Virus record (IMG/VR): IMGVR_UViG_3300037488_002392
Origin: a virus
Taxonomy: Duplodnaviria; Heunggongvirae; Uroviricota; Caudoviricetes
Reading direction: 5' to 3' (one strand)
DNA length: 19,271 bases
A model generated the notes under the pieces. It was not told the DNA's origin, did not search any database, and saw nothing but the letters and a program-made list of their open reading frames with translations. Both the position numbers and the translations under genes were made by a program. The number at the start of each line of letters is the position of its first letter. Within the stretch, counting starts at the first letter, position 1. This document shows, in pieces, positions 321 to 13,776 of the stretch.

Positions 321-602
321 TTATTTCACAGTGACAACATACGCCGCCCTATCCTTTGCTATATATAGGGCTTCTTGTTCATCCAAGTTCTGAAACCATT
401 TATAGGTTCCCCATGAATCTTGGTAGCAAGCAGAACAAACTACGAAGCAATTCATATATTGATGTTTTTTAGTACGGTAAGGTATTGTTGCAAGGAAACG
501 GTCTGTTGCATCGGGCATAGTAGCATTGCATCTCAAGCAGTAATCTTGATGGCAAAGCTCAACCCTTGCTGCAAGCTCTTGCTTATCAGTAAGATTAATC
601 AT
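321..602 (-). CDS. Small Zn-binding protein with degenerate HNH-like layout (93 aa)
   Basis: CLRC ... NCFVVCSAC, reminiscent of HNH CxxC ... NxxxxCxxC; ATGA overlap with the polymerase stop (599-602). Confidence 0.55.
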   Translation of the reverse strand: MINLTDKQELAARVELCHQDYCLRCNATMPDATDRFLATIPYRTKKHQYMNCFVVCSACYQDSWGTYKWFQNLDEQEALYIAKDRAAYVVTVK

Positions 603-1768
603 AATTTGACCTCCTTATCTACCAGTACTCCATCTACCGCAATGTGGATGACGTGGTCAACTAAGTTATTATCCAATATAAAACGGGCAACTGCTAGGCG
701 AGTGCCTACCTCGACTTCGCACCCCCACGGAGCGTTAAAATATTCTCCTGCTGTTTCTCCAAAGTCAACTTGGAGACAGCGACCCCACATCCCAGACATA
801 ATTCTTTTTACAATCTTACGCTCCATACCCTTTGCAGTTTCCTTTTTGGTATAAAGCCATTCGATAATCTTCTTGAGAGGGTAGTTTATTTTTTCGGGGA
901 AGAACCACCAAGCTTCATCTAACTGGAAGTCACCGATGCCGTACTTTTTAATGAACTCGATTTCCTTCTTATTCAGGAATGTCTCCCATTCACCTTTGGG
1001 GGTATAGCTTACTTCATTAGTCTTAGAGTAGATAATGGGGGAGAAATCAGATGTTATGTTGACTATTCCTTTAGCATAACCGTAATAGGCATCCTCTTGC
1101 CACTTATCAGTTTTAATCCACGTTCCCAATCGGGTGTCGATGCACTTTGTTAGTTGGAAAGGATATGCGCTGACAATATCTAAGTCATAAACCTTGTCCC
1201 ATTTTCCTACCTGAAATGCTGAGACCCAAGGGCCGTGACAACAGTTATAAGCGTACTCAGATGCTTCGGGGGGGATATCTGCAAAATCGGGTAGGTTTAA
1301 TTTAGAGAATATCTCTTTATCAAATGCGGAAATAGGGCTTACAAGGGTCTTAGGGTGCAGTCCAAGTTTACTTAGGGCATTGTATACCTGCCCACCCAAT
1401 TTGCAGGCTTCCTTAGCCTTATTAAGGGGGTCTCCGACTAAATCCCATCGTTCCATGTACTGAGAAGCGTCAGCCATGACAACGAATTTATCCTCTTTCT
1501 CGATGGAGAAGAATTTCTTGGGGACATACTTAAATTTATATCCTGAAAGTTTTAGTTCGCTGGTTTCGTAGAGTTTGAGTAGATTTGCGTTGCTTATTTT
1601 CAGGATAGAGCATAAATTGCTGACCATGAAATCTAGATGATAACAGATACGTAACGTATCCTTCTCTTTAAGTAGGAATTCGATGTAGGGTGGTTCTTTG
1701 CATATGTCACCATTGGAAGTAACGATGGCACGGCTATCCCTGTCTAAATGATATCCAAGGATTTGCAT
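599..1768 (-). CDS. Short, divergent family-B DNA polymerase-like protein of the protein-primed/organellar-viral type (389 aa)
   Basis: Motif A YDLDIVSAYP, TPR1-like segment (TPKGEWETFLNKKEIEF...IIEWLYTKK), motif B-like KRIMSGMWG, motif C-like IAVDG; the protein ends 8 residues after AVDG. TAATG overlap with the upstream gene. Confidence 0.7.
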   Translation of the reverse strand: MQILGYHLDRDSRAIVTSNGDICKEPPYIEFLLKEKDTLRICYHLDFMVSNLCSILKISNANLLKLYETSELKLSGYKFKYVPKKFFSIEKEDKFVVMADASQYMERWDLVGDPLNKAKEACKLGGQVYNALSKLGLHPKTLVSPISAFDKEIFSKLNLPDFADIPPEASEYAYNCCHGPWVSAFQVGKWDKVYDLDIVSAYPFQLTKCIDTRLGTWIKTDKWQEDAYYGYAKGIVNITSDFSPIIYSKTNEVSYTPKGEWETFLNKKEIEFIKKYGIGDFQLDEAWWFFPEKINYPLKKIIEWLYTKKETAKGMERKIVKRIMSGMWGRCLQVDFGETAGEYFNAPWGCEVEVGTRLAVARFILDNNLVDHVIHIAVDGVLVDKEVKL

Positions 1769-2259
1769 TAACGAGTCCTACGAACCCGCCTAATGAGTTT
1801 GGGTCGGGAGGGGTAAAGAGGACGCTTGGGTATAGTGCGAACCTTAGTGGCTTCATGTAGGTGCCTAGCGTATAATTTTCCGAATGTACGGGTAAGCCTA
1901 CTTCTATTCCTTTTTTTAATGGACGACATAAAATCTGTGAGAGGCTCTTTTCTTCTATATTCGGCTTTGAGGAAATCCCAAGGATTTCGTTTAGCACCTA
2001 GCCTATAATACTCTGAGATTTTCCCCTTTATTTCCATGTCAGTCCATCCAGCTTTGCGAAGGTCTGCACAATATCGTCTACGACTTCTTCGCATCGCTAA
2101 AAATGGCTTAGAATTGAAATTGACATCTTGTTTAACTATATTCCTGGGGCTTGCAGGGGAACCTACGTTTCCACCCGTAGCACGGGAGAACGCTAAAATT
2201 TCCGAGATAGTGAACCCATCATCTAAAAGAAGGCGTTTTTGGTTCTTATTAAGTGCCAT
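1768..2259 (-). CDS. Highly basic hypothetical protein (163 aa), probable nucleic-acid binder
   Basis: Arg/Lys-rich. Start moved to ATG 2259 (MALNK), which has AAGGAG 8 nt upstream. Coupled to the polymerase gene. Confidence 0.75.
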   Translation of the reverse strand: MALNKNQKRLLLDDGFTISEILAFSRATGGNVGSPASPRNIVKQDVNFNSKPFLAMRRSRRRYCADLRKAGWTDMEIKGKISEYYRLGAKRNPWDFLKAEYRRKEPLTDFMSSIKKRNRSRLTRTFGKLYARHLHEATKVRTIPKRPLYPSRPKLIRRVRRTR

Positions 2260-3871
2260 AGTATAATCTCCTTTCACGTACTTGTATTGCTAATGCTGGT
2301 TGGAAAGGGTGGTCAATTCTGTTTCCTAGAGATATGTTGTCTTTCCCCCAAAGAGGGATTAAGTTGCTTTTATCCCAGCACCTACGGAAATCGTAATCAT
2401 TTGGCGTAGTGTAGTTAAACAAGCTGATAGGTATTTTATGATGAACATGCCAACCATGATTTTTGTTGCCGTAGTTATCCCAAGACATACCTTCAGTGAA
2501 GTTATTTTCTAAATGCTCTTTTAGTTCATCTGTTGTATATCCAACTAAATCTTGCCATCGTTTGCTGTTCTTATATCTACGTAGCGAAAGATATAAGTAG
2601 GTGCTCATATTGCTATTCAATCTAACTATTGGGTCTGTTTGTCTTCGTATTCTACATCTATTATTTCCTTTTATGCGTTGGCATTGTTTGCACGTAGTGC
2701 GTATTCCACTGTAAACACCCTCACCCTTCCTGAAGTAGTCAAGAGTAGCTGGGTATATATTATGACAAGTAGTGCATTCCTCTAACAATTTGTAAGCTTT
2801 TTCGAATTTACCCTTTTTATTATATTTGCTACAATCGTAGCACTGGTTTGTGCGTGGTATACCCTTCACTAATATTATCCAAAACCCATTATTGCAAGTA
2901 ATACATTCGTTATACAGGAAGCGAGAGTTACCTTTTCTGCCTATTTCTCTAGCATGTAGTATGTCTCCTATATTTGGAGTATATTTTTTGAGTTGGTCTA
3001 ACGTTAAATATGGGGTTTTAGTCATAGACTTACACATATTGCTTGCACGTATTCTATCGCAATCTAAGCAAGTGAGTGTTTCTGGCTTTCCTCGTTTCAA
3101 CCTTGACCATCTTGTTTTACCGCATGTAGCACAAGCATTCCATATGACCTTCCCTTTCTCTCCTAGCCCTAGTGCTTTACGGTGCCTTATGTCCCCAATC
3201 TGCGGTATATATAAAGATAACTCATTATCAGATAGGGGCTTGATAGCTCGTGATAGCTTGAAGCATTCTAAACATATGTAGCTTTTTTGATGCACTCCTT
3301 TTTTAGTTCTAATCCAATCTTGTTTTTTGCAACCATCACAAGCATACCATTCCCAATAACCACCACTTTCTAAGCCAATATATTTGCTATAACGGATATC
3401 TCCTAATTGCGGGGAATATTTAGCTATTTCTTCAGGAGTGGGAAACTTTTTATTATGTTCAGCTACCCTATGCTCATATCCACATTTAAGACAGCGTTGA
3501 GATACTGGTTTACCTTTCACACAATGAGACCATCTGCCGTTTTTGCAATCATGGCATACATTCCATATCCAGTTACCTTCCCAGCTAACAACCGCACCAA
3601 TTTCCTCAGATGTTCTTATTTCTCCCTCAACTGGGATATGGTCATTAGGAAGCTTAGGTTTTAGTGGAATAAAATTGTTTTCTCCCATAATAATATAGGC
3701 ACATTTGCGGCAATGTGGACTTTGTGGCTTACCTTTTTCATATTGTACCCATCTGCATTCACCACATTTCTCACATGGATACCAAATAAATCTATTTTTG
3801 AAAGAAGTATTGGTTTTGCCAATCTCATATCCCCGCCGTATCTCTCCCAGTTCTGGTTGTTCGATGCTCAT
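2249..3871 (-). CDS. HNH endonuclease with five tandem N-terminal Zn-ribbon repeats and a sixth, different Zn finger (540 aa)
   Basis: Five G[ED]I[RL]-x4-[IL]G...CxxC...W...G...CxxC units (aa ~6-347), then CTTC...CKQC, then a C-terminal GMSWDNYG...WHVHHKIP...NLIPLWGKDNISLGN HNH domain. Confidence 0.8.
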   Translation of the reverse strand: MSIEQPELGEIRRGYEIGKTNTSFKNRFIWYPCEKCGECRWVQYEKGKPQSPHCRKCAYIIMGENNFIPLKPKLPNDHIPVEGEIRTSEEIGAVVSWEGNWIWNVCHDCKNGRWSHCVKGKPVSQRCLKCGYEHRVAEHNKKFPTPEEIAKYSPQLGDIRYSKYIGLESGGYWEWYACDGCKKQDWIRTKKGVHQKSYICLECFKLSRAIKPLSDNELSLYIPQIGDIRHRKALGLGEKGKVIWNACATCGKTRWSRLKRGKPETLTCLDCDRIRASNMCKSMTKTPYLTLDQLKKYTPNIGDILHAREIGRKGNSRFLYNECITCNNGFWIILVKGIPRTNQCYDCSKYNKKGKFEKAYKLLEECTTCHNIYPATLDYFRKGEGVYSGIRTTCKQCQRIKGNNRCRIRRQTDPIVRLNSNMSTYLYLSLRRYKNSKRWQDLVGYTTDELKEHLENNFTEGMSWDNYGNKNHGWHVHHKIPISLFNYTTPNDYDFRRCWDKSNLIPLWGKDNISLGNRIDHPFQPALAIQVRERRLYYGT

Positions 3872-5067: not shown

Positions 5068-5309
5068 TTTGGTTCCTCCTCTATTCGTTTTTCGATAGCT
5101 ACTATGAAATCGCTTACTATTGTGACTAAGTTGCCCAAAGACTGTTTTAATGTGATGGATAAGTAGTGGGTTGATTGTAATCCAACAGTGTAGGATATTA
5201 TTCTACCAGAAAAGGTTTGACCTATTGTTGTGTGAATGGTTACAAATGGTTGCTCATCTACTGATTTACTGTTATCACAATAAGGCAATAAGAGTATTTT
5301 ATCTATCAC
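5064..5309 (-). CDS. Hypothetical protein (81 aa)
   Basis: GTG start next to the upstream stop; ATGA overlap downstream. Confidence 0.6.
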   Translation of the reverse strand: MIDKILLLPYCDNSKSVDEQPFVTIHTTIGQTFSGRIISYTVGLQSTHYLSITLKQSLGNLVTIVSDFIVAIEKRIEEEPK

Positions 5310-5310
5310 C

Positions 5311-5712
5311 TTACACTGCCGCCTTGAGGGAATTCCTCATCCACTCAAACGCCATTTCCTTCAAGTCTTCGGGGATTGATACTACACCCGAAACCATTAT
5401 ATCTGTAATACATTTTACTGCTACCTGAGCCTCAATTGAAATGTCCTTAGTGTTCTTGGGCTGCTGTTGAATCATTTTCTTTGCCTCCATTATATCCTGA
5501 CATCGCTCGATATCCTTTACATAATCTCTTCCAGTGGCAGCAGTTGCCATAATTAATTTTACGGCAGTTCCTGATTGGAGTATGCTCCACTTCTTTTCTA
5601 GCCATGAGCCAATACCATAGGTGTTCCCATCCTTATCGGTGAGCTTGATGTATTTTTTGCCATCCTTTTCGGCATCTTCTACGTGGTCTACGACAGTAAT
5701 CACATCGGTCAT
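5311..5712 (-). CDS. Hypothetical protein, possible OB-fold ssDNA binder (133 aa)
   Basis: Start moved to MTDVI (ATGA overlap at 5709-5712). Beta-rich N-terminus; C-terminal DISIEAQVAVKC motif shared with 12274-12603. Confidence 0.65.
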   Translation of the reverse strand: MTDVITVVDHVEDAEKDGKKYIKLTDKDGNTYGIGSWLEKKWSILQSGTAVKLIMATAATGRDYVKDIERCQDIMEAKKMIQQQPKNTKDISIEAQVAVKCITDIMVSGVVSIPEDLKEMAFEWMRNSLKAAV

Positions 5713-5882
5713 TTTATCTCTGGTTCCTTGCCACATTTGGGACAAAACTTGAAATGGTTAAGCAGTCTATCTCCGCACTGTGTACATTCCTTTAGGTCTT
5801 CCATCGCTGCACCGTCTTGGTGGCAAAATTTATGGGAATCGTTGATGGTTACGTTCTTGCATATTGGGCATTGTTTAGTCAT
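5709..5882 (-). CDS. Double zinc-ribbon protein (57 aa)
   Basis: Start moved to MTKQC (5882, AGGAAGGA upstream); CPIC...FCHQDG...CTQCG...FCPKCG. Confidence 0.7.
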   Translation of the reverse strand: MTKQCPICKNVTINDSHKFCHQDGAAMEDLKECTQCGDRLLNHFKFCPKCGKEPEIK

Positions 5883-8181: not shown

Positions 8182-8298
8182 TCATTTAAGTAATCCGATA
8201 ATTGTTATTATTTTTATTAAGTTACCATTAATAAATATTAGAGTTGTTGCAATGCTTGAAAGTAGTGCAATGATGATAAAGCCTTGTAGGTTAGACAT
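8182..8298 (-). CDS. Hydrophobic peptide (38 aa, not in ORF track)
   Basis: MSNLQGFIIIALLSSIATTLIFINGNLIKIITIIGLLK; AGGAGG SD; paralog of 8062-8169. Confidence 0.7.
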   Translation of the reverse strand: MSNLQGFIIIALLSSIATTLIFINGNLIKIITIIGLLK

Positions 8299-9580
8299 AT
8301 ATCCTCCTATCATTATCCCATGCTAGGGGTATCGATATATCACTATCACCCTGCCTGTTTTTGGCAAGGATTAATTCGGCTGTTCCCCGTAATTCGGGGT
8401 TCTCCATCAAAAGTTCAGGATATTTATCGGGACGGAACATGAGCAGTGCTACGTCAGCGTCCTCCTCCAAGCGACCAGTTTCACGAAAACTAGTGAGAGT
8501 GGGTCTTTTGCTCTTATTGTGCTGGTCTTCTACACCCCTAGATAGTTGTGATAATATAAGTCCAGGCACTTCAAGGGCTTCTAACACTTGTTTTGTTCTT
8601 GTAGAGATTAAGGATACCCTTTCATATGGAGACTTCCCCCCGTCTGCAAATAGTTGAAGGTAATCCACTATGATAGCTGACAACCCATGCGTAAGTTTCA
8701 TAGTTTCTGCTATCCTAAACAGCATATCAGTGGTAACCCCTGCTCCAGTATTAAGTCCTCTTCCCAAAAAGTATATGTTTTTCTCTGCCATCTTAGGCAA
8801 AGTGTTGACTATTTGCTTATAAAACTCATCGTAGTAGTTTCCTATTCTGACAGAGCGAGGATGGACAGCTAACTCAGAGGATATCATTCTATCTAAGAGT
8901 CCTCTCCAATTCATCTCCAACGAAGCGAATAATATATTACCTTGTGTTTGCATATTGTCAGCAATTTGCATTGCAAGGCTGGTCTTTCCGTGGCTCGCAC
9001 GTCCTCCCAGTAGCCACATTTCTCCTTGGAACATTCCCCCCGTTTCATAATCCAATTGTTCGAAACCTGTTTTAATAGAAGTCTTTAATCCGTGAGAGAG
9101 GGTAGCGTATCTGTCTGCTCCCATCAGTGCAAGTTTGTTAGGGGTTATCAGGCTGTCAGTAAGCACTGATTTGCCTATTGTTGATAGCATCTGGTTAGCC
9201 TTTAATAGGTTGTCCTTGGGGTCAACGTTGAGGGATGCCATTGCGCTGATTTGTTCAGAAGCAGAAATAATCTTTCGGTTTACGGAACAGTCCTTAACTA
9301 CTCTGGCATATGATTCTACCCCAACAGATGTCACTGCCCTGGCTACTAAACCAACAATATAGCTAACTCCGCCAGCTTCTTCTAATTTCCCCATCCTATT
9401 TAATTCATGTGGTACAGTAATCTCGTTGGGGGTTTCGCATTTAAGCATGGCAGTATAGATAAGTTGGTGCTCAGAAAGGAAAAAGTCAGATGGCTCTAAA
9501 CTTAAGATTCTTATACAATCGGGGTCAATCAGGATGGCTCCCAGTACCGCCATTTCCCCGTCATCGTTGCGGGGTATCAT
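8291..9580 (-). CDS. dnaB: Replicative DNA helicase DnaB (429 aa)
   Basis: N-terminal EMAVLGAILID, Walker A GGRASHGKTS, IVDYLQL, LSQLSR, RETGRLEEDADV, ILAKNRQG. Start moved to the ATGA overlap at 9580. Confidence 0.93.
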   Translation of the reverse strand: MIPRNDDGEMAVLGAILIDPDCIRILSLEPSDFFLSEHQLIYTAMLKCETPNEITVPHELNRMGKLEEAGGVSYIVGLVARAVTSVGVESYARVVKDCSVNRKIISASEQISAMASLNVDPKDNLLKANQMLSTIGKSVLTDSLITPNKLALMGADRYATLSHGLKTSIKTGFEQLDYETGGMFQGEMWLLGGRASHGKTSLAMQIADNMQTQGNILFASLEMNWRGLLDRMISSELAVHPRSVRIGNYYDEFYKQIVNTLPKMAEKNIYFLGRGLNTGAGVTTDMLFRIAETMKLTHGLSAIIVDYLQLFADGGKSPYERVSLISTRTKQVLEALEVPGLILSQLSRGVEDQHNKSKRPTLTSFRETGRLEEDADVALLMFRPDKYPELLMENPELRGTAELILAKNRQGDSDISIPLAWDNDRRIYV

Positions 9581-9849
9581 TTCATCCACCAACGCCACCG
9601 TGGTAGAAAGGAGTTACTACCACGATGGCTAAGAGAGTAAAGAAGACTCACAAACCAAGAAGGTTTGTAAGCGGAAACGCTTATAGTGGTTATTGGTTTA
9701 TTGATATCAGAATGTTTAAATGAGAATGGTTTGAACCCCTCTACTATAGCACCCCAAGCCAAATCGTTCCACTTACCATGTATGAGCTTGGTGCGTAACT
9801 CTAACTGGGGGGTTCCCCATTCTATTGTGAAAGTAAATGTTTTATTCAC
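9577..9849 (-). CDS. Hypothetical protein (90 aa)
   Basis: Coupled ORF upstream of dnaB; GGGAG SD. Confidence 0.6.
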   Translation of the reverse strand: MNKTFTFTIEWGTPQLELRTKLIHGKWNDLAWGAIVEGFKPFSFKHSDINKPITTISVSAYKPSWFVSLLYSLSHRGSNSFLPRWRWWMK

Positions 9850-10225
9850 CTTCTATCTCTCCCCATTTATCAGGCAAGTCGGGGAATTTCCCCTCATGTC
9901 CTAAGGGTAGCTCAGGGAACTTACCCATCAGGTCAGTTAAGGCTGCGGATGATTTCATACTGAGTTTGAGTTGTTGCCACAGCTCATACAAAACTACTTC
10001 AGAGATGCTACCAAGTACCCGTTCCTGCGATTTATCGAACCTCAGCATCTGCTCTATCTGTTCCATCCACCACTTATCACGGGCAGCCGCTGTCTTGGAG
10101 TCCTGTGCTTTAATTAGGTCTGTAAAGAATGTACGAGGCAATATATAAGCATCAGTGGTGGGGAAAGATGGTGATATTATAACTTGCAATATCTCATCGT
10201 CAATCAATAACCGTTCATTTTCCAT
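9842..10225 (-). CDS. Modular family protein (RLL / AARDKWW / WQQLK), 127 aa
   Basis: ENERLLIDDEI, AQDSKTAAARDKWW, WQQLK. Confidence 0.75.
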   Translation of the reverse strand: MENERLLIDDEILQVIISPSFPTTDAYILPRTFFTDLIKAQDSKTAAARDKWWMEQIEQMLRFDKSQERVLGSISEVVLYELWQQLKLSMKSSAALTDLMGKFPELPLGHEGKFPDLPDKWGEIEGE

Positions 10226-10490
10226 TCCCTATCTCCTCCCTACGCTCTTGCCAGCATTGATAGCACTCCAGTTTGAGAGTATCTTCATCAAACTCTTTGG
10301 TATCAGGATTGAAGATATGGTTATGTGGGCAAGTGCTTTGTGCCCACCCTACCCATTCCTTATCACGAGCAGCGAGCATGGCAGAAGCACCAGCTTCAAA
10401 GTTCTTGTACATTGAACACTGTTGCTCAGGTGGTAAATCCTTGCAGTCACAAGTTTCTTCCCATCCTTCAGGTCGCCATTCTGTTTTCAT
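10215..10490 (-). CDS. Modular family protein (WRP / EAGASAML / RDKEW / CWQERR), 91 aa
   Basis: Start moved to MKTEW (ATGA overlap, AAGGAG SD). Confidence 0.75.
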   Translation of the reverse strand: MKTEWRPEGWEETCDCKDLPPEQQCSMYKNFEAGASAMLAARDKEWVGWAQSTCPHNHIFNPDTKEFDEDTLKLECYQCWQERREEIGNGK

Positions 10491-10669
10491 ATCCCTATCT
10501 CCTTGCGGCGGGATTGCCAACAGTTAAAACATGCACTCTTGGAAGTCCCATCTCGGCGGTGCATACATGTATCTTCTCCCCACTCTACCCACTCTTTATC
10601 ACGGGCAGCGATGGCTTCGTCCCATGCCTTCTCGCAGTCACCATAGGTTTGAAAGTATGGATTATTCAT
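10487..10669 (-). CDS. Modular family protein (AARDKEWVEW / CWQSRRKEIG), 60 aa
   Basis: Shared modules; ATGA overlaps on both sides. Confidence 0.75.
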   Translation of the reverse strand: MNNPYFQTYGDCEKAWDEAIAARDKEWVEWGEDTCMHRRDGTSKSACFNCWQSRRKEIGI

Positions 10670-10953
10670 AACCCTAACTCCTTCTTGAGTTGTTGCCAGC
10701 TCTCTATATGGCAGACTCCCGCTTTATCACAAATCAAACAATGTTCGGAGTCAACCTCCAGGCTTAGACAGGTGCCGATAAACTTCTCTATCCTCTCTAC
10801 CCACCACTTATCACGGGCAGCGGTAGACTTGACATCTTGGGCTTTGCAGAAGTAAGCAATCGAGATATCTCCCGCATGGTCGTAGGCTTCATCATCATTT
10901 AAGAGGTGACAAATTTCAATATTACTTAATAACCTATCCATTGGCTCATTCAT
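10666..10953 (-). CDS. Modular family protein (RLL / AARDKWW / WQQLK), 95 aa
   Basis: DRLLSNIEI, AQDVKSTAARDKWW, WQQLKKE. Confidence 0.75.
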   Translation of the reverse strand: MNEPMDRLLSNIEICHLLNDDEAYDHAGDISIAYFCKAQDVKSTAARDKWWVERIEKFIGTCLSLEVDSEHCLICDKAGVCHIESWQQLKKELGL

Positions 10954-11171
10954 TTCTCACCTCTTAATTCTGCCATACATTGAGGGCAGAGATAGCGATG
11001 TTTTATGTGTATCACATCTCCGCATCCACAATGCAAGGGGATTTTACACGGCTCATCCAAGTAGACCAGCAGGGCAGAGAGCATGGCAGAGGCACCAGCT
11101 TCACACGCTGACCTCTCAGGTTCATCAAATAAATTTCCCCAATCATCAGGTCGCCCATTTATCCAGTTCAT
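10950..11171 (-). CDS. Modular family protein (GRP / EAGASAML / CPxC-ELRGEK), 73 aa
   Basis: Shared modules; ATGA overlaps. Confidence 0.75.
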   Translation of the reverse strand: MNWINGRPDDWGNLFDEPERSACEAGASAMLSALLVYLDEPCKIPLHCGCGDVIHIKHRYLCPQCMAELRGEK

Positions 11172-11437
11172 AACACTCCCATATTTTTTTTGAGTTGTTC
11201 AAAAGCTTGGCATGAAAAAGAATGAACAGAACAAGTAAGTTTATGCTTACAGTTTCCTGAATAGCAACCATAAATTAACTCTTTGACTCCTGCTACCCAC
11301 CACTTATCACGGGCAGCGATGGATTGGTTGCTATGGGCAGCACAGCAACCCCATTTCGAGCAACTATCGCAATCAGGTACTTTTGCTAATGGGTCACGTT
11401 CTGCGCATGGAATACCACCAAGCATATCTTTACTCAT
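11168..11437 (-). CDS. Modular family protein (Cys-rich / AARDKWW / EQLKK), 89 aa
   Basis: Shared modules; ATGA overlaps. Confidence 0.75.
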   Translation of the reverse strand: MSKDMLGGIPCAERDPLAKVPDCDSCSKWGCCAAHSNQSIAARDKWWVAGVKELIYGCYSGNCKHKLTCSVHSFSCQAFEQLKKNMGVL

Positions 11438-11754
11438 TTCTCACCTCTTAATTCATTCATACAAGTAGGGCAGTCTTTACGATGCAAATAGCTTGCTTTA
11501 TATTTGCCGGTTGGGAGCAGGATTACTTCGACCCTACTCGCATCTACCCTATCTCGGTTATCCACCAGATGGGCAGGATTATCACACGGGGCATCCATAT
11601 ATTTCAGCAGTTTGCGTTGACCTTGACAAAGACTCTTGTAATGATCGTGAATTACGCATTGCCCACTTACTACACATTTATTGTATTTACTTTGGTAATG
11701 CTCTCGTGAACTGCATTTATCACACGGATTAACTGGTTTCCAGTCTGTAGCCAT
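11434..11754 (-). CDS. Modular family protein (WKP / CPxC-ELRGEK), 106 aa
   Basis: LLKYMDAPC...RKDCPTCMNELRGEK. Confidence 0.75.
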   Translation of the reverse strand: MATDWKPVNPCDKCSSREHYQSKYNKCVVSGQCVIHDHYKSLCQGQRKLLKYMDAPCDNPAHLVDNRDRVDASRVEVILLPTGKYKASYLHRKDCPTCMNELRGEK

Positions 11755-11939
11755 TAGATTCCCTCCCCTTTTTGTGGACTCATAACAAGTGCGATTCTTT
11801 CGTATTCAATCCTATCAATGTAGACAGCATATCCAGAGTACAAAATTACTCGGCACAGGTTATCATCACAGTATTCAACTCTGCATATATCAGATACCGT
11901 GAGGGGGCAATTCATATTTCTATTGTCTTGTATTTTCAT
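11754..11939 (-). CDS. Small Cys-containing protein (61 aa)
   Basis: Start moved to MKIQD (ATGA overlap; AAGGAG SD embedded in the upstream RKKEIG codons). Confidence 0.65.
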   Translation of the reverse strand: MKIQDNRNMNCPLTVSDICRVEYCDDNLCRVILYSGYAVYIDRIEYERIALVMSPQKGEGI

Positions 11940-12277
11940 AACCCTATCTCCTTCTTGCGTTCTTGCCAGTCCCCCAGGGCAAATTTGGATAGGCAATTGA
12001 ACTCTAAACCATAGTCAGTTTCATGGAATAGGTTAGATTCAAGCCACTCCACCCACTCTTTGTTGCAGGAATCAATGGCTATAGCGACAGCCTTGTTATA
12101 GGCATCTAACGATCCGCAGTTGTCAGCACATTTAATGTCGTCACGGCTATTAGCATTGTGACAATATTTGCAAACTACAGGTATAGATGCCTCGTATTCC
12201 TTCAATCTGTTGCAAGTGTCTGGATACAAGGGGCAATGCCGTATTTCAATCTCACAATTTAGGCAAGGAGTTTTCAT
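11936..12277 (-). CDS. Modular family protein (Cys-rich / NKEWVEW / WQERKKEIG), 113 aa
   Basis: Start moved to MKTPC (ATGA overlap). Confidence 0.7.
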   Translation of the reverse strand: MKTPCLNCEIEIRHCPLYPDTCNRLKEYEASIPVVCKYCHNANSRDDIKCADNCGSLDAYNKAVAIAIDSCNKEWVEWLESNLFHETDYGLEFNCLSKFALGDWQERKKEIGL

Positions 12278-12603
12278 TTCAGGGCACTCCGTATCCATTC
12301 GATTGCCATTGTCTTAATATCTTCCGGTACTTCTACGTTAGCAGCCATTAAATCCGTGACACATTTTACTGCAACCTGTCTTTCAATGCTTAAATCCCGT
12401 GGGTTTTTGGGTGCTGTCTGGCTCAATTCCGCCATTTTATCCATTGAAAGATCATAGCAAAGGTCGAAGTCCTTAACATAGATTTGCCCTTTGTATTCAT
12501 CCATCTGAAGTCTGACTGCTGCGTCCTGCTTTAAGAGCACCCACTTGGCTTCCATATTTCCTTTCCACATAGGATTTTCGCTTTCTAATAATCTCCTGGT
12601 CAT
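12274..12603 (-). CDS. N-terminally different paralog of the 5311-5712 protein (109 aa)
   Basis: DLSIERQVAVKCVTDLM...EWIRSALK aligns with DISIEAQVAVKCITDIM...EWMRNSLK. Confidence 0.7.
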   Translation of the reverse strand: MTRRLLESENPMWKGNMEAKWVLLKQDAAVRLQMDEYKGQIYVKDFDLCYDLSMDKMAELSQTAPKNPRDLSIERQVAVKCVTDLMAANVEVPEDIKTMAIEWIRSALK

Positions 12604-12890
12604 TTATTGGCCTCCTTTAATTCATTAAGACATTGAGGGCAGTCCTTACGATACTTATAAAACTTTTTTCCATTTATTTCTATCAATGGTGCGGCAGTGA
12701 ACCATCCATGCCTTTCATTACTACATGACCCATACATATATTTAACCACATCATGTAGCATGGCAGAGGCACCAGCTTCGTAGGAGTTGGCACATTCCAT
12801 TTCTACATAAGGATTATCAACATGGTCAGGATTGCGGAAATCATGCGGATTCATCCAATCAGTAGGTCGTCCTTTAATCCAGTCTGTCAT
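12600..12890 (-). CDS. Modular family protein (GRP / EAGASAML / CPQC-ELK), 96 aa
   Basis: Start moved to MTDWI (ATGA overlap). Confidence 0.75.
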   Translation of the reverse strand: MTDWIKGRPTDWMNPHDFRNPDHVDNPYVEMECANSYEAGASAMLHDVVKYMYGSCSNERHGWFTAAPLIEINGKKFYKYRKDCPQCLNELKEANK

Positions 12891-13414
12891 AACCCTACCT
12901 CCTTGCGGCGGGATTGCCACACGTTATAAGCGCAAACTTCCTTCCGCATTTCGGGACAATTTGTACACTGTAGATATTTCCGCTCCAAGCAAATGTACGG
13001 CAATAGGTTATGAAATAGTTTATCAAGCCACTCTACCCACTCTTTATCTGTCTTGGCGAGTTGGGCAGCGGATGCCATCTCAGCAAATTCCATCCCCTCA
13101 CACGGCTCTGCTTTCGCTTCGCACTCAAGCGAGTTGTCACAGTCCATACAAAATAATTCCACTAAGTCCATATCACGCAATAGTCTATTTTCGCTCATAA
13201 TCCTACACTCCTTTAGATAGTCACACGATAATCCTTCTTCGAGCAAACAGGGTTTACCATTTATATCACAAGTTGCAATTGGGTCGGTAGGTTGTTGATG
13301 CCCACATTTACCTAAGAGGCTATCAATATATTCTTCATACTGTTCAGATTCATGCCCACTAATTTGCCTGCTTTCATGTTCACGAATCTCATCATCAGAT
13401 GCTAACCTACTCAT
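12887..13414 (-). CDS. Modular family protein (two RL modules / DKEWVEW / WQSRRKEVG), 175 aa
   Basis: MSRLASDDEI and internal MSENRLLRDMDL, suggesting a fusion of two units. Confidence 0.75.
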   Translation of the reverse strand: MSRLASDDEIREHESRQISGHESEQYEEYIDSLLGKCGHQQPTDPIATCDINGKPCLLEEGLSCDYLKECRIMSENRLLRDMDLVELFCMDCDNSLECEAKAEPCEGMEFAEMASAAQLAKTDKEWVEWLDKLFHNLLPYICLERKYLQCTNCPEMRKEVCAYNVWQSRRKEVGL

Positions 13415-13776
13415 AATCCTATCTCCCTCCAGCAAATATCACAAGAATGTTTCTGCTTTATAGGCATATTCCCCGATGTGAAATGCGGGCAAGGTTCGTT
13501 CATATACTCCACCACATCTTTCAATATAGTAGATGCCCCTGCCTCGTAGGCTGCTACACAGATATGGCAAGCATCTGGGTGTTCTTCACAGCGTCCGCAG
13601 TAGTCAGGTTGGCCTACCCATTCTTGTGGTCTCCATTTTTCGAACCTCTGCGTGTTTCTCATTTCCTTTTCTCTTCGAGCTTTTCGTTTAAGTCTCCTAT
13701 CTAGTTCACGAGATAATTTACCACTCTTCCTAATTATTGTTACCTCACTATGCATTACTTCTACTTCTTTGTTCAT
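13411..13776 (-). CDS. Modular family protein (WRP / EAGASTIL / CDICWREIG), 121 aa
   Basis: Basic N-terminal extension plus shared modules; ATGA overlap at 13773-13776. Confidence 0.7.
   Translation of the reverse strand: MNKEVEVMHSEVTIIRKSGKLSRELDRRLKRKARREKEMRNTQRFEKWRPQEWVGQPDYCGRCEEHPDACHICVAAYEAGASTILKDVVEYMNEPCPHFTSGNMPIKQKHSCDICWREIGL

Follow-up and report, generated by a model that had tools for sequence, protein, structure and literature searches.

A phi29-like viral DNA polymerase probably encoded by two separate genes, its large chain ending just past motif C

The gene at positions 599-1768 of the window (the whole 19,271-nt stretch of viral DNA analysed here, from IMG/VR record IMGVR_UViG_3300037488_002392) very probably codes for the large subunit of a phi29-like (protein-primed-type) family B DNA polymerase (PolB) that is naturally split and active, so that what had the appearance of a minimal thumbless polymerase would be a two-gene enzyme. 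A preliminary description had read the gene as a minimal, degenerate PolB of the protein-primed type (pPolB) and had named a split polymerase as one of three options, beside a primer-synthesis or repair enzyme and a repurposed nucleotidyltransferase. The class assignment stands, phi29 polymerase being the best fold match, and the split is supported by a separate gene for the C-terminal piece in all three clade members that could be tested; the minimal stand-alone enzyme is not supported, as clade members keep that piece as a conserved gene at a distance.

RESULTS

A phi29-like chain that stops after motif C

The window covers one arm of what looks like a viral genome, with tightly packed small genes and a DnaB gene at 8291-9598. 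The polymerase gene and its parts are as follows.

599-1768, minus strand: gene for a 389-aa protein, the putative large (N) subunit of the split polymerase, with an exonuclease-fold domain, the palm up to motif C, TPR1, fingers and a stub TPR2
1349-1768 (approximate boundary), minus strand: reduced 3'-5' exonuclease-fold domain, aa ~1-140, without the ExoI/ExoIII carboxylates and predicted, from fold and residues, to be inactive
1160-1180, minus strand: motif A, DIVSAYP, with D197 equivalent to phi29 D249 and invariant in 223 of 223 sequences
878-1147 (boundaries inferred), minus strand: TPR1-sized insertion, aa ~208-297, separating motif A from the fingers
782-808, minus strand: motif B variant KRIMSGMWG, with K321
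734-781, minus strand: short beta-hairpin in the TPR2 slot
629-646, minus strand: motif C variant HIAVDG, from H375, with D379 equivalent to phi29 D458 and invariant, and the first Asp replaced by Ala
599-628, minus strand: putative split point, comprising the final residues and the stop codon; the corresponding stretch of fused relatives is the loop preceding a conserved GxW strand

The length of 389 aa and the three motifs read as first described, with motif C taken as AVDG. The stop does lie close to motif C, although nine residues after AVDG (ten past the catalytic Asp) and not eight codons later. The TPR1-like insert is borne out, 124 aa separating the motif A Asp from the motif B Lys in a phi29-like fold, and the TPR2 slot measures 16-17 aa (motif B Gly to N345) in short and fused forms alike.

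The AF2 model of the 389-aa chain has a mean pLDDT of 94.5 and contains the PolB palm/fingers fold, an exonuclease-fold N-terminal domain and TPR1. Its top Foldseek match was phi29 polymerase (E 2e-13), on which it aligns end to end over residues 6-470 (Z 18.6, rmsd 3.6 A, 359 residues aligned), far above the Z of 10 or less obtained with other (cellular) PolBs; the fold comparison proposed in the preliminary description thus returned a PolB palm fold. The model ends at phi29 residue 470, in agreement with the reported absence of the thumb and KxY region from the ORF; past that residue, phi29 polymerase has the final strands of its palm, which carry KxY, and then the thumb. The ORF matched PHROG 11768 ('DNA polymerase', E 3.6e-10) and a Pfam search with it was blank; PF03175 matched 6 of 36 homologs, and PDB sequence searches returned no polymerase, leaving fold comparison as the only route to recognition there. 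On sequence and model together, its identity as a PolB is far beyond chance.

The early stop is shared and under selection

About 15 of the first 50 homologs listed are 386-441 aa long and stop at the same place, and the others are 510-580 aa; the large family of single-chain relatives spans 510-570 aa. The short forms end 7-25 residues past the catalytic Asp, mostly at 10, and 24 non-redundant short forms make up one clade nested among 169 fused forms (FastTree support 0.99; 100/98 on a 19-row subset). Dozens of independently assembled sequences, at 45-91% identity, share this end. Against the 91%-identical relative L006, dN/dS was 0.028, and 0.029 over the last 70 codons; in comparisons between C-terminal proteins (below), synonymous sites are at or near saturation. 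The truncation is hence a common property of the short-form clade and not a frameshift or premature stop in a full-length gene, and the earlier argument against simple decay is upheld by the dN/dS of about 0.03 and the shared stop. The 389-aa ORF is real and not decaying, and is maintained by purifying selection. A pseudogene or assembly error, for which nothing speaks except the early stop, has a negligible probability and is already refuted by the homologs, given the recurrent end and selection up to the last codons.

Unusual motifs are family traits

In an alignment of 223 sequences D197 and D379 are invariant, in line with the claim that both metal-binding Asp residues are retained. Short and long forms alike show the pattern KR..G..G, have VDG and lack the ExoI acids. 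No sequence of the 223 has an acid at both ExoI positions, so the reported lack of an ExoI motif holds family-wide, the exonuclease-fold domain being nevertheless present; the ExoIII helix shows no conserved Tyr/Asp pair in the family alignment. The motif A Ser/Tyr and the motif B Lys are retained in the family (Lys in 100% of short and 90% of fused forms), the motif B Gly is invariant, and the residue preceding the last motif B Gly is Trp in 84% of short forms. Because these motif changes also occur in full-length single-chain relatives, they are no sign of degeneration of the short form, and the word 'degenerate' should be dropped: KRIMxGxWG, AVDG and the dead exonuclease are traits of a large single-chain family and not damage.

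The wider family comprises 816 cluster representatives at E 1e-30 or better. The model of a long (fused) member (pLDDT 93.4) matches phi29 residues 6-575 (Z 21.5), and the best viral model for a fused relative was the pPolB of the spindle-shaped halovirus His1 (TM 0.81, E 6.6e-28). Inteins occur in motifs A and B, in split and fused forms (P0216, P0217, P0083, P0134, P0105, P0060 and P0061); the insertion site is motif B in the near relatives P0216 and P0217 and motif A in other short forms. The literature searched, mostly open-access, contains no account of this polymerase family, IMG/VR yielded distant relatives only, no close cultured phage or plasmid relative was found, and 400 Bacillota genomes held no relative. 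The bins of relatives are labelled Clostridiales and Patescibacteria and are possibly mis-binned.

The C-terminal piece is a separate gene in relatives

Searches with a C-domain profile, built from the final ~135 aa of the long forms, retrieve stand-alone proteins 113-155 aa in length. The piece consists of the GxW strand and the following palm strands, the thumb and a conserved KR motif, with SSG at the position where KxY is expected by order, and the stand-alone proteins retain the conserved C-domain residues. Such a gene accompanies the N gene in 3 of the 3 clade members in which the far arm was reached, a count that excludes six other short lineages (P0038, P0139, P0111, P0134, P0079 and L034). 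In these three relatives two genes of one genome together cover the single-chain homolog, 17-26 kb apart and on opposite strands:

Ga0265297_10001264: N gene 28,543-29,730 (minus strand) and C gene 5,148-5,573 (plus strand), 22,970 bp apart; its large chain is 71% identical to that of the window
JAEAME010000129.1: N and C genes 26,407 bp apart
UBA4821 MAG: N and C genes on two contigs with an exact 150-bp overlap, 16,949 bp apart; both proteins are recorded from contigs of 64,348 bp

The position of the C gene is constant. It precedes an HTH gene and an operon for sugar modification, which is convergent with the N gene. In L003 (13579-21161), L055, L051 and L054 a long glycosylation operon converges on the N gene, with the C gene near the operon start; the operon encodes an STT3/AglB oligosaccharyltransferase, a DUF2206 protein, glycosyltransferases, DegT, a transketolase-like pair and epimerases.

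The two halves tile, the distance from Asp to Trp being 19 in fused forms and split as 10 after the Asp and 6 before the Trp. The C genes begin 1-13 residues ahead of the Trp and often overlap the preceding gene, the N chain ends in a true stop that is often overlapped by the next gene, and in the long-form model the cut falls in an inter-strand loop. Stand-alone C proteins of the window-clade type form one clade (97/94). With no match in Pfam, PHROG or NCBIfam, this small half would escape any annotation. The stand-alone C subunits of the window clade P0198-P0204 carry acidic C-terminal tails, absent in most fused forms. An HMM search of the window, in which just 598 bp lie downstream of the polymerase gene, detected no C gene, and the virus's own copy would lie outside the window. 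A prediction of the complex of both halves with the upstream protein U (below), in which U was the scored partner, gave 0.00; it had neither controls nor N-C scoring and is evidence neither way.

The same loop was split repeatedly

Because the short N forms and the stand-alone C proteins each form a single clade, the window clade derives from one old split with both halves kept. Other lineages show other arrangements. In L016 the N gene is followed by a NUMOD3 endonuclease-like gene and then the C gene, and a shared origin of this split and that of the window clade was rejected (p-AU 0.0006). Three-piece versions occur in two relatives:

L043, 2702-6490: three-piece polymerase, with a second split just before motif A
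L052, 6913-10372: three-piece polymerase, likewise split a second time just before motif A

Genes for an HNH/NUMOD3 endonuclease or a DNA methyltransferase lie between the pieces in both, the methyltransferase between the N and C halves, and in the P0192 locus a 59-aa ORF separates the halves. The same loop was thus split independently at least three times. We suggest that the split may arise when a gene inserts into a tolerant loop and is coupled to it in translation, and that the small gene may move later. A loop cut several times by evolution also suggests a site at which two-part phi29-type enzymes could be made.

Neighbouring genes and genome size

Two further genes of this arm bear on the role of the polymerase.

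1768-2259, minus strand: gene U, 163 aa, Arg/Lys-rich, upstream of the polymerase gene and translationally coupled to it (TAATG); candidate terminal/primer protein or accessory subunit
8291-9598, minus strand: DnaB replicative helicase, in the same arm

Both reported overlaps are present, TAATG with the 163-aa gene and ATGA with the downstream 93-aa gene. As to the two neighbours put forward as possible partners, U is indeed a conserved companion that lies upstream of the polymerase gene in distant members as well as in split and fused ones, with a Tyr at position 101 among its conserved residues; the 93-aa gene was rejected as a partner, being found in only one close relative (L044). U gave no family or fold match and resembles no known terminal protein. 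A second, shorter U paralog lies at 7009-7311 of L048, in the UBA4821 element, and an HNH gene (L037) or an HTH-repeat gene (L005) can lie between U and the polymerase.

The contigs measure 92.8 kb (92,815 bp, the window's own) and 103.6 kb; DnaB is present, and relatives encode DnaB and SSB. Two assemblies (L061 1-515 and L062 1-510) stop at points no more than 6 nt apart, in repetitive AT-rich sequence, and L054 (1-340) begins with ten GCAACC copies; these ends fit either a true genome end or assemblies that broke off at a control region rich in repeats.

DISCUSSION

Comparison with known polymerases

The family shares with phi29 polymerase and other pPolBs (PF03175) the fold, the domain order, the TPR1 insertion, the two catalytic Asp residues and a small gene directly upstream. 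It differs in being encoded by two genes, in the missing exonuclease acids, the stub TPR2, the lack of KxY and the motif C sequence IAVDG, and also in genome: pPolB viruses have been described as under 50 kb and generally without a helicase (PMC4889955), whereas the genomes here are ~93-104 kb with DnaB. The family is thus an exception to the rule by which pPolB-type enzymes are confined to small genomes without a helicase. With KxY and thumb outside the large chain, the C domain being a separate gene in the clade, we file these proteins as a divergent pPolB-type family that has the pPolB core yet departs from typical members in exonuclease, KxY and genome size.

Natural PolB splits are known from Methanothermobacter PolB, T4-like gp43A/B, RM378, phiKZ DNAP-N/C and Nanoarchaeum PolB, and have been attributed to inserted selfish elements (PMC3061061, PMC4104785, PMC13648687). 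As here, two genes are involved, sometimes far apart, and there the chains reassemble. Those enzymes, however, are of the RNA/DNA-primed class, and their break points lie in the palm, at the tip of the fingers or between the palm and the N-terminal domain, or a split intein divides them; in the present case the enzyme is of the pPolB type and the break comes directly after motif C, with both catalytic Asp residues in the large chain and the loop cut repeatedly. The literature searched, mostly open-access, holds no split pPolB and no PolB split at the post-motif-C site; our findings would extend natural PolB splits to the phi29 class.

The piPolBs of pipolins likewise have TPR1, a single motif C Asp followed by Gly and no KxY (PMC5695915); here the exonuclease is dead, the enzyme is split and the context is viral. 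The likeness to the xTDG motif of piPolB noted earlier does not amount to membership, since the family has H/S-I-A-V-D-G in place of SxTTDG, KH-x8-KTRG is absent from the C-domain consensus, and the exonuclease residues are missing. Archaeal PolB2/Dpo2 and the bacterial G2 group with arCOG07300 offer an analogy only, through a dead exonuclease, a lone motif C Asp often after His, a motif of the form D/E-x-K-R or D-R close to the C-terminus and a small helical partner gene (PMC7544198, PMC4104785); they differ from the phi29-like fold with TPR1 seen here, which scored Z 18.6 against phi29 and 10 or less against cellular PolBs, and no RadA-like gene was found among the listed neighbours.

Alternative explanations

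It might be argued, in line with the leading idea of the preliminary description, that the 389-aa chain acts alone, as a distributive primer-synthesis or nucleotidyl-transfer enzyme. Both catalytic Asp residues do lie in the N chain, no C gene was found within 10 kb downstream in L003, L005, L006 and L037, and the window itself was searched for one in vain. What makes this reading improbable is the conserved, monophyletic C gene present farther off in every testable clade member, together with the extent of the missing part, which includes palm strands and not the thumb only. We think it quite improbable, too, that both halves are kept in a protein which, once reassembled, is no longer a templated DNA polymerase, being used for protein nucleotidylation only, or structurally. 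Poxvirus F12 is an example of a structural role, and the family-wide loss of the exonuclease acids, the motif B Asn and KxY, the frequent motif B Trp and the presence of DnaB and SSB in these genomes could all be taken that way; both metal ligands are nevertheless invariant, the motif B Lys and motif A Ser/Tyr are kept, inteins interrupt motifs A and B, and piPolB and PolB2 are active despite similar substitutions (PMC5695915, PMC7544198).

Rejoining of the halves into one chain by RNA splicing, trans-splicing or a split intein has a precedent in Nanoarchaeum PolB, which is trans-spliced by an intein (PMC4104785), and would suit the homing-endonuclease-like gene between the halves in L016. We regard it as very improbable: the window-clade halves lie on opposite strands and far apart, the true stop of N, the C start close to the Trp and the gene overlaps leave no space for intein parts, the gene between the halves in L043 and L052 is a methyltransferase gene, and Rfam, a weak argument here, gave no intron match at either junction. 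For the split, active enzyme that we prefer, several points call for caution: the window yielded no C gene of its own, the predicted activity of the family has to be squared with a motif B that lacks its Asn and with a replaced KxY, and N and C lie in different operons, so that their co-expression is assumed.

Working hypothesis

Our current working hypothesis is that an ancestral gene of ~530 aa was cut in the surface loop just past motif C and that the remainder, of ~135-155 aa, became a separate gene in another, convergent operon. The two chains would be made separately and assemble non-covalently, as split PolB chains do elsewhere (PMC3061061, PMC13648687), with D197 and D379 binding the metals. 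A single motif C Asp is enough for activity in piPolB (PMC5695915). As the proofreading residues and KxY are lacking and TPR2, which is linked to processivity and strand displacement, is a stub implying low processivity (PMC4974454), the enzyme is probably a short-tract, low-processivity polymerase. Since relatives encode DnaB and SSB, bulk copying of ~100 kb by the split polymerase alone is unlikely; the DnaB gene in the same arm argues that bulk replication does not rest on the polymerase's strand displacement, and most of the genome may be copied by DnaB and host enzymes.

What an exonuclease-dead pPolB does beside DnaB is a question that these genomes raise. We give about an even chance to priming on U as a terminal-type primer, at ends or at an internal origin. 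In phi29, PRD1 and Bam35 the terminal protein gene is directly upstream of the polymerase gene; this position and the retained TPR1, which is the terminal-protein-binding subdomain (PMC4974454), make U a candidate terminal protein. Against such a role, U matches no known terminal protein and has a strongly basic composition, unlike the acidic priming domain of phi29 (PMC4974454); moreover, no terminal repeats have been demonstrated among records of which none includes both ends, and one distant relative is classed as a provirus. Alternatively, and with clearly less probability, the enzyme may fill gaps or bypass lesions on DNA primers; that it is the main replicase behind DnaB seems less probable again. 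A possible functional model, combining an internal origin with short protein-primed synthesis, is the patching of Streptomyces telomere ends by Tpg/Tap (PMC4513846); there is no homology, and protein-bound linear ends are hypothetical for these viruses.

It is tempting to go further and to see here a large new pPolB family, without proofreading and repeatedly split into catalytic and thumb subunits, as the dedicated protein-priming enzyme of ~100-kb viruses, which would load nucleotides on U and pass the primer to a DnaB-driven, host-type replisome. We hold this broader scheme to be possible but rather unlikely. If true, protein priming and a DnaB replisome would join two replication strategies held to be mutually exclusive, and the location of the thumb gene in a different operon might serve to time the activity.

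Other features of the window

Directly upstream of U, a gene at 2249-3871 (minus strand) encodes a 540-aa protein with repeated Cys-pair modules and an HNH-like C-terminus, a shorter homolog of which occupies the same place in L003. The genes at 5311-5745 and 12274-12603 (minus strand) form a paralogous pair that belongs to no known family; most close relatives have homologs of them upstream of the polymerase. An array of small genes with common 20-60-nt DNA blocks extends over 9842-13776. Promoter-like regions are duplicated at 7800-7836/15198-15234 and at 15267-15377/16397-16507, the latter pair containing a small DNA-binding-type ORF.
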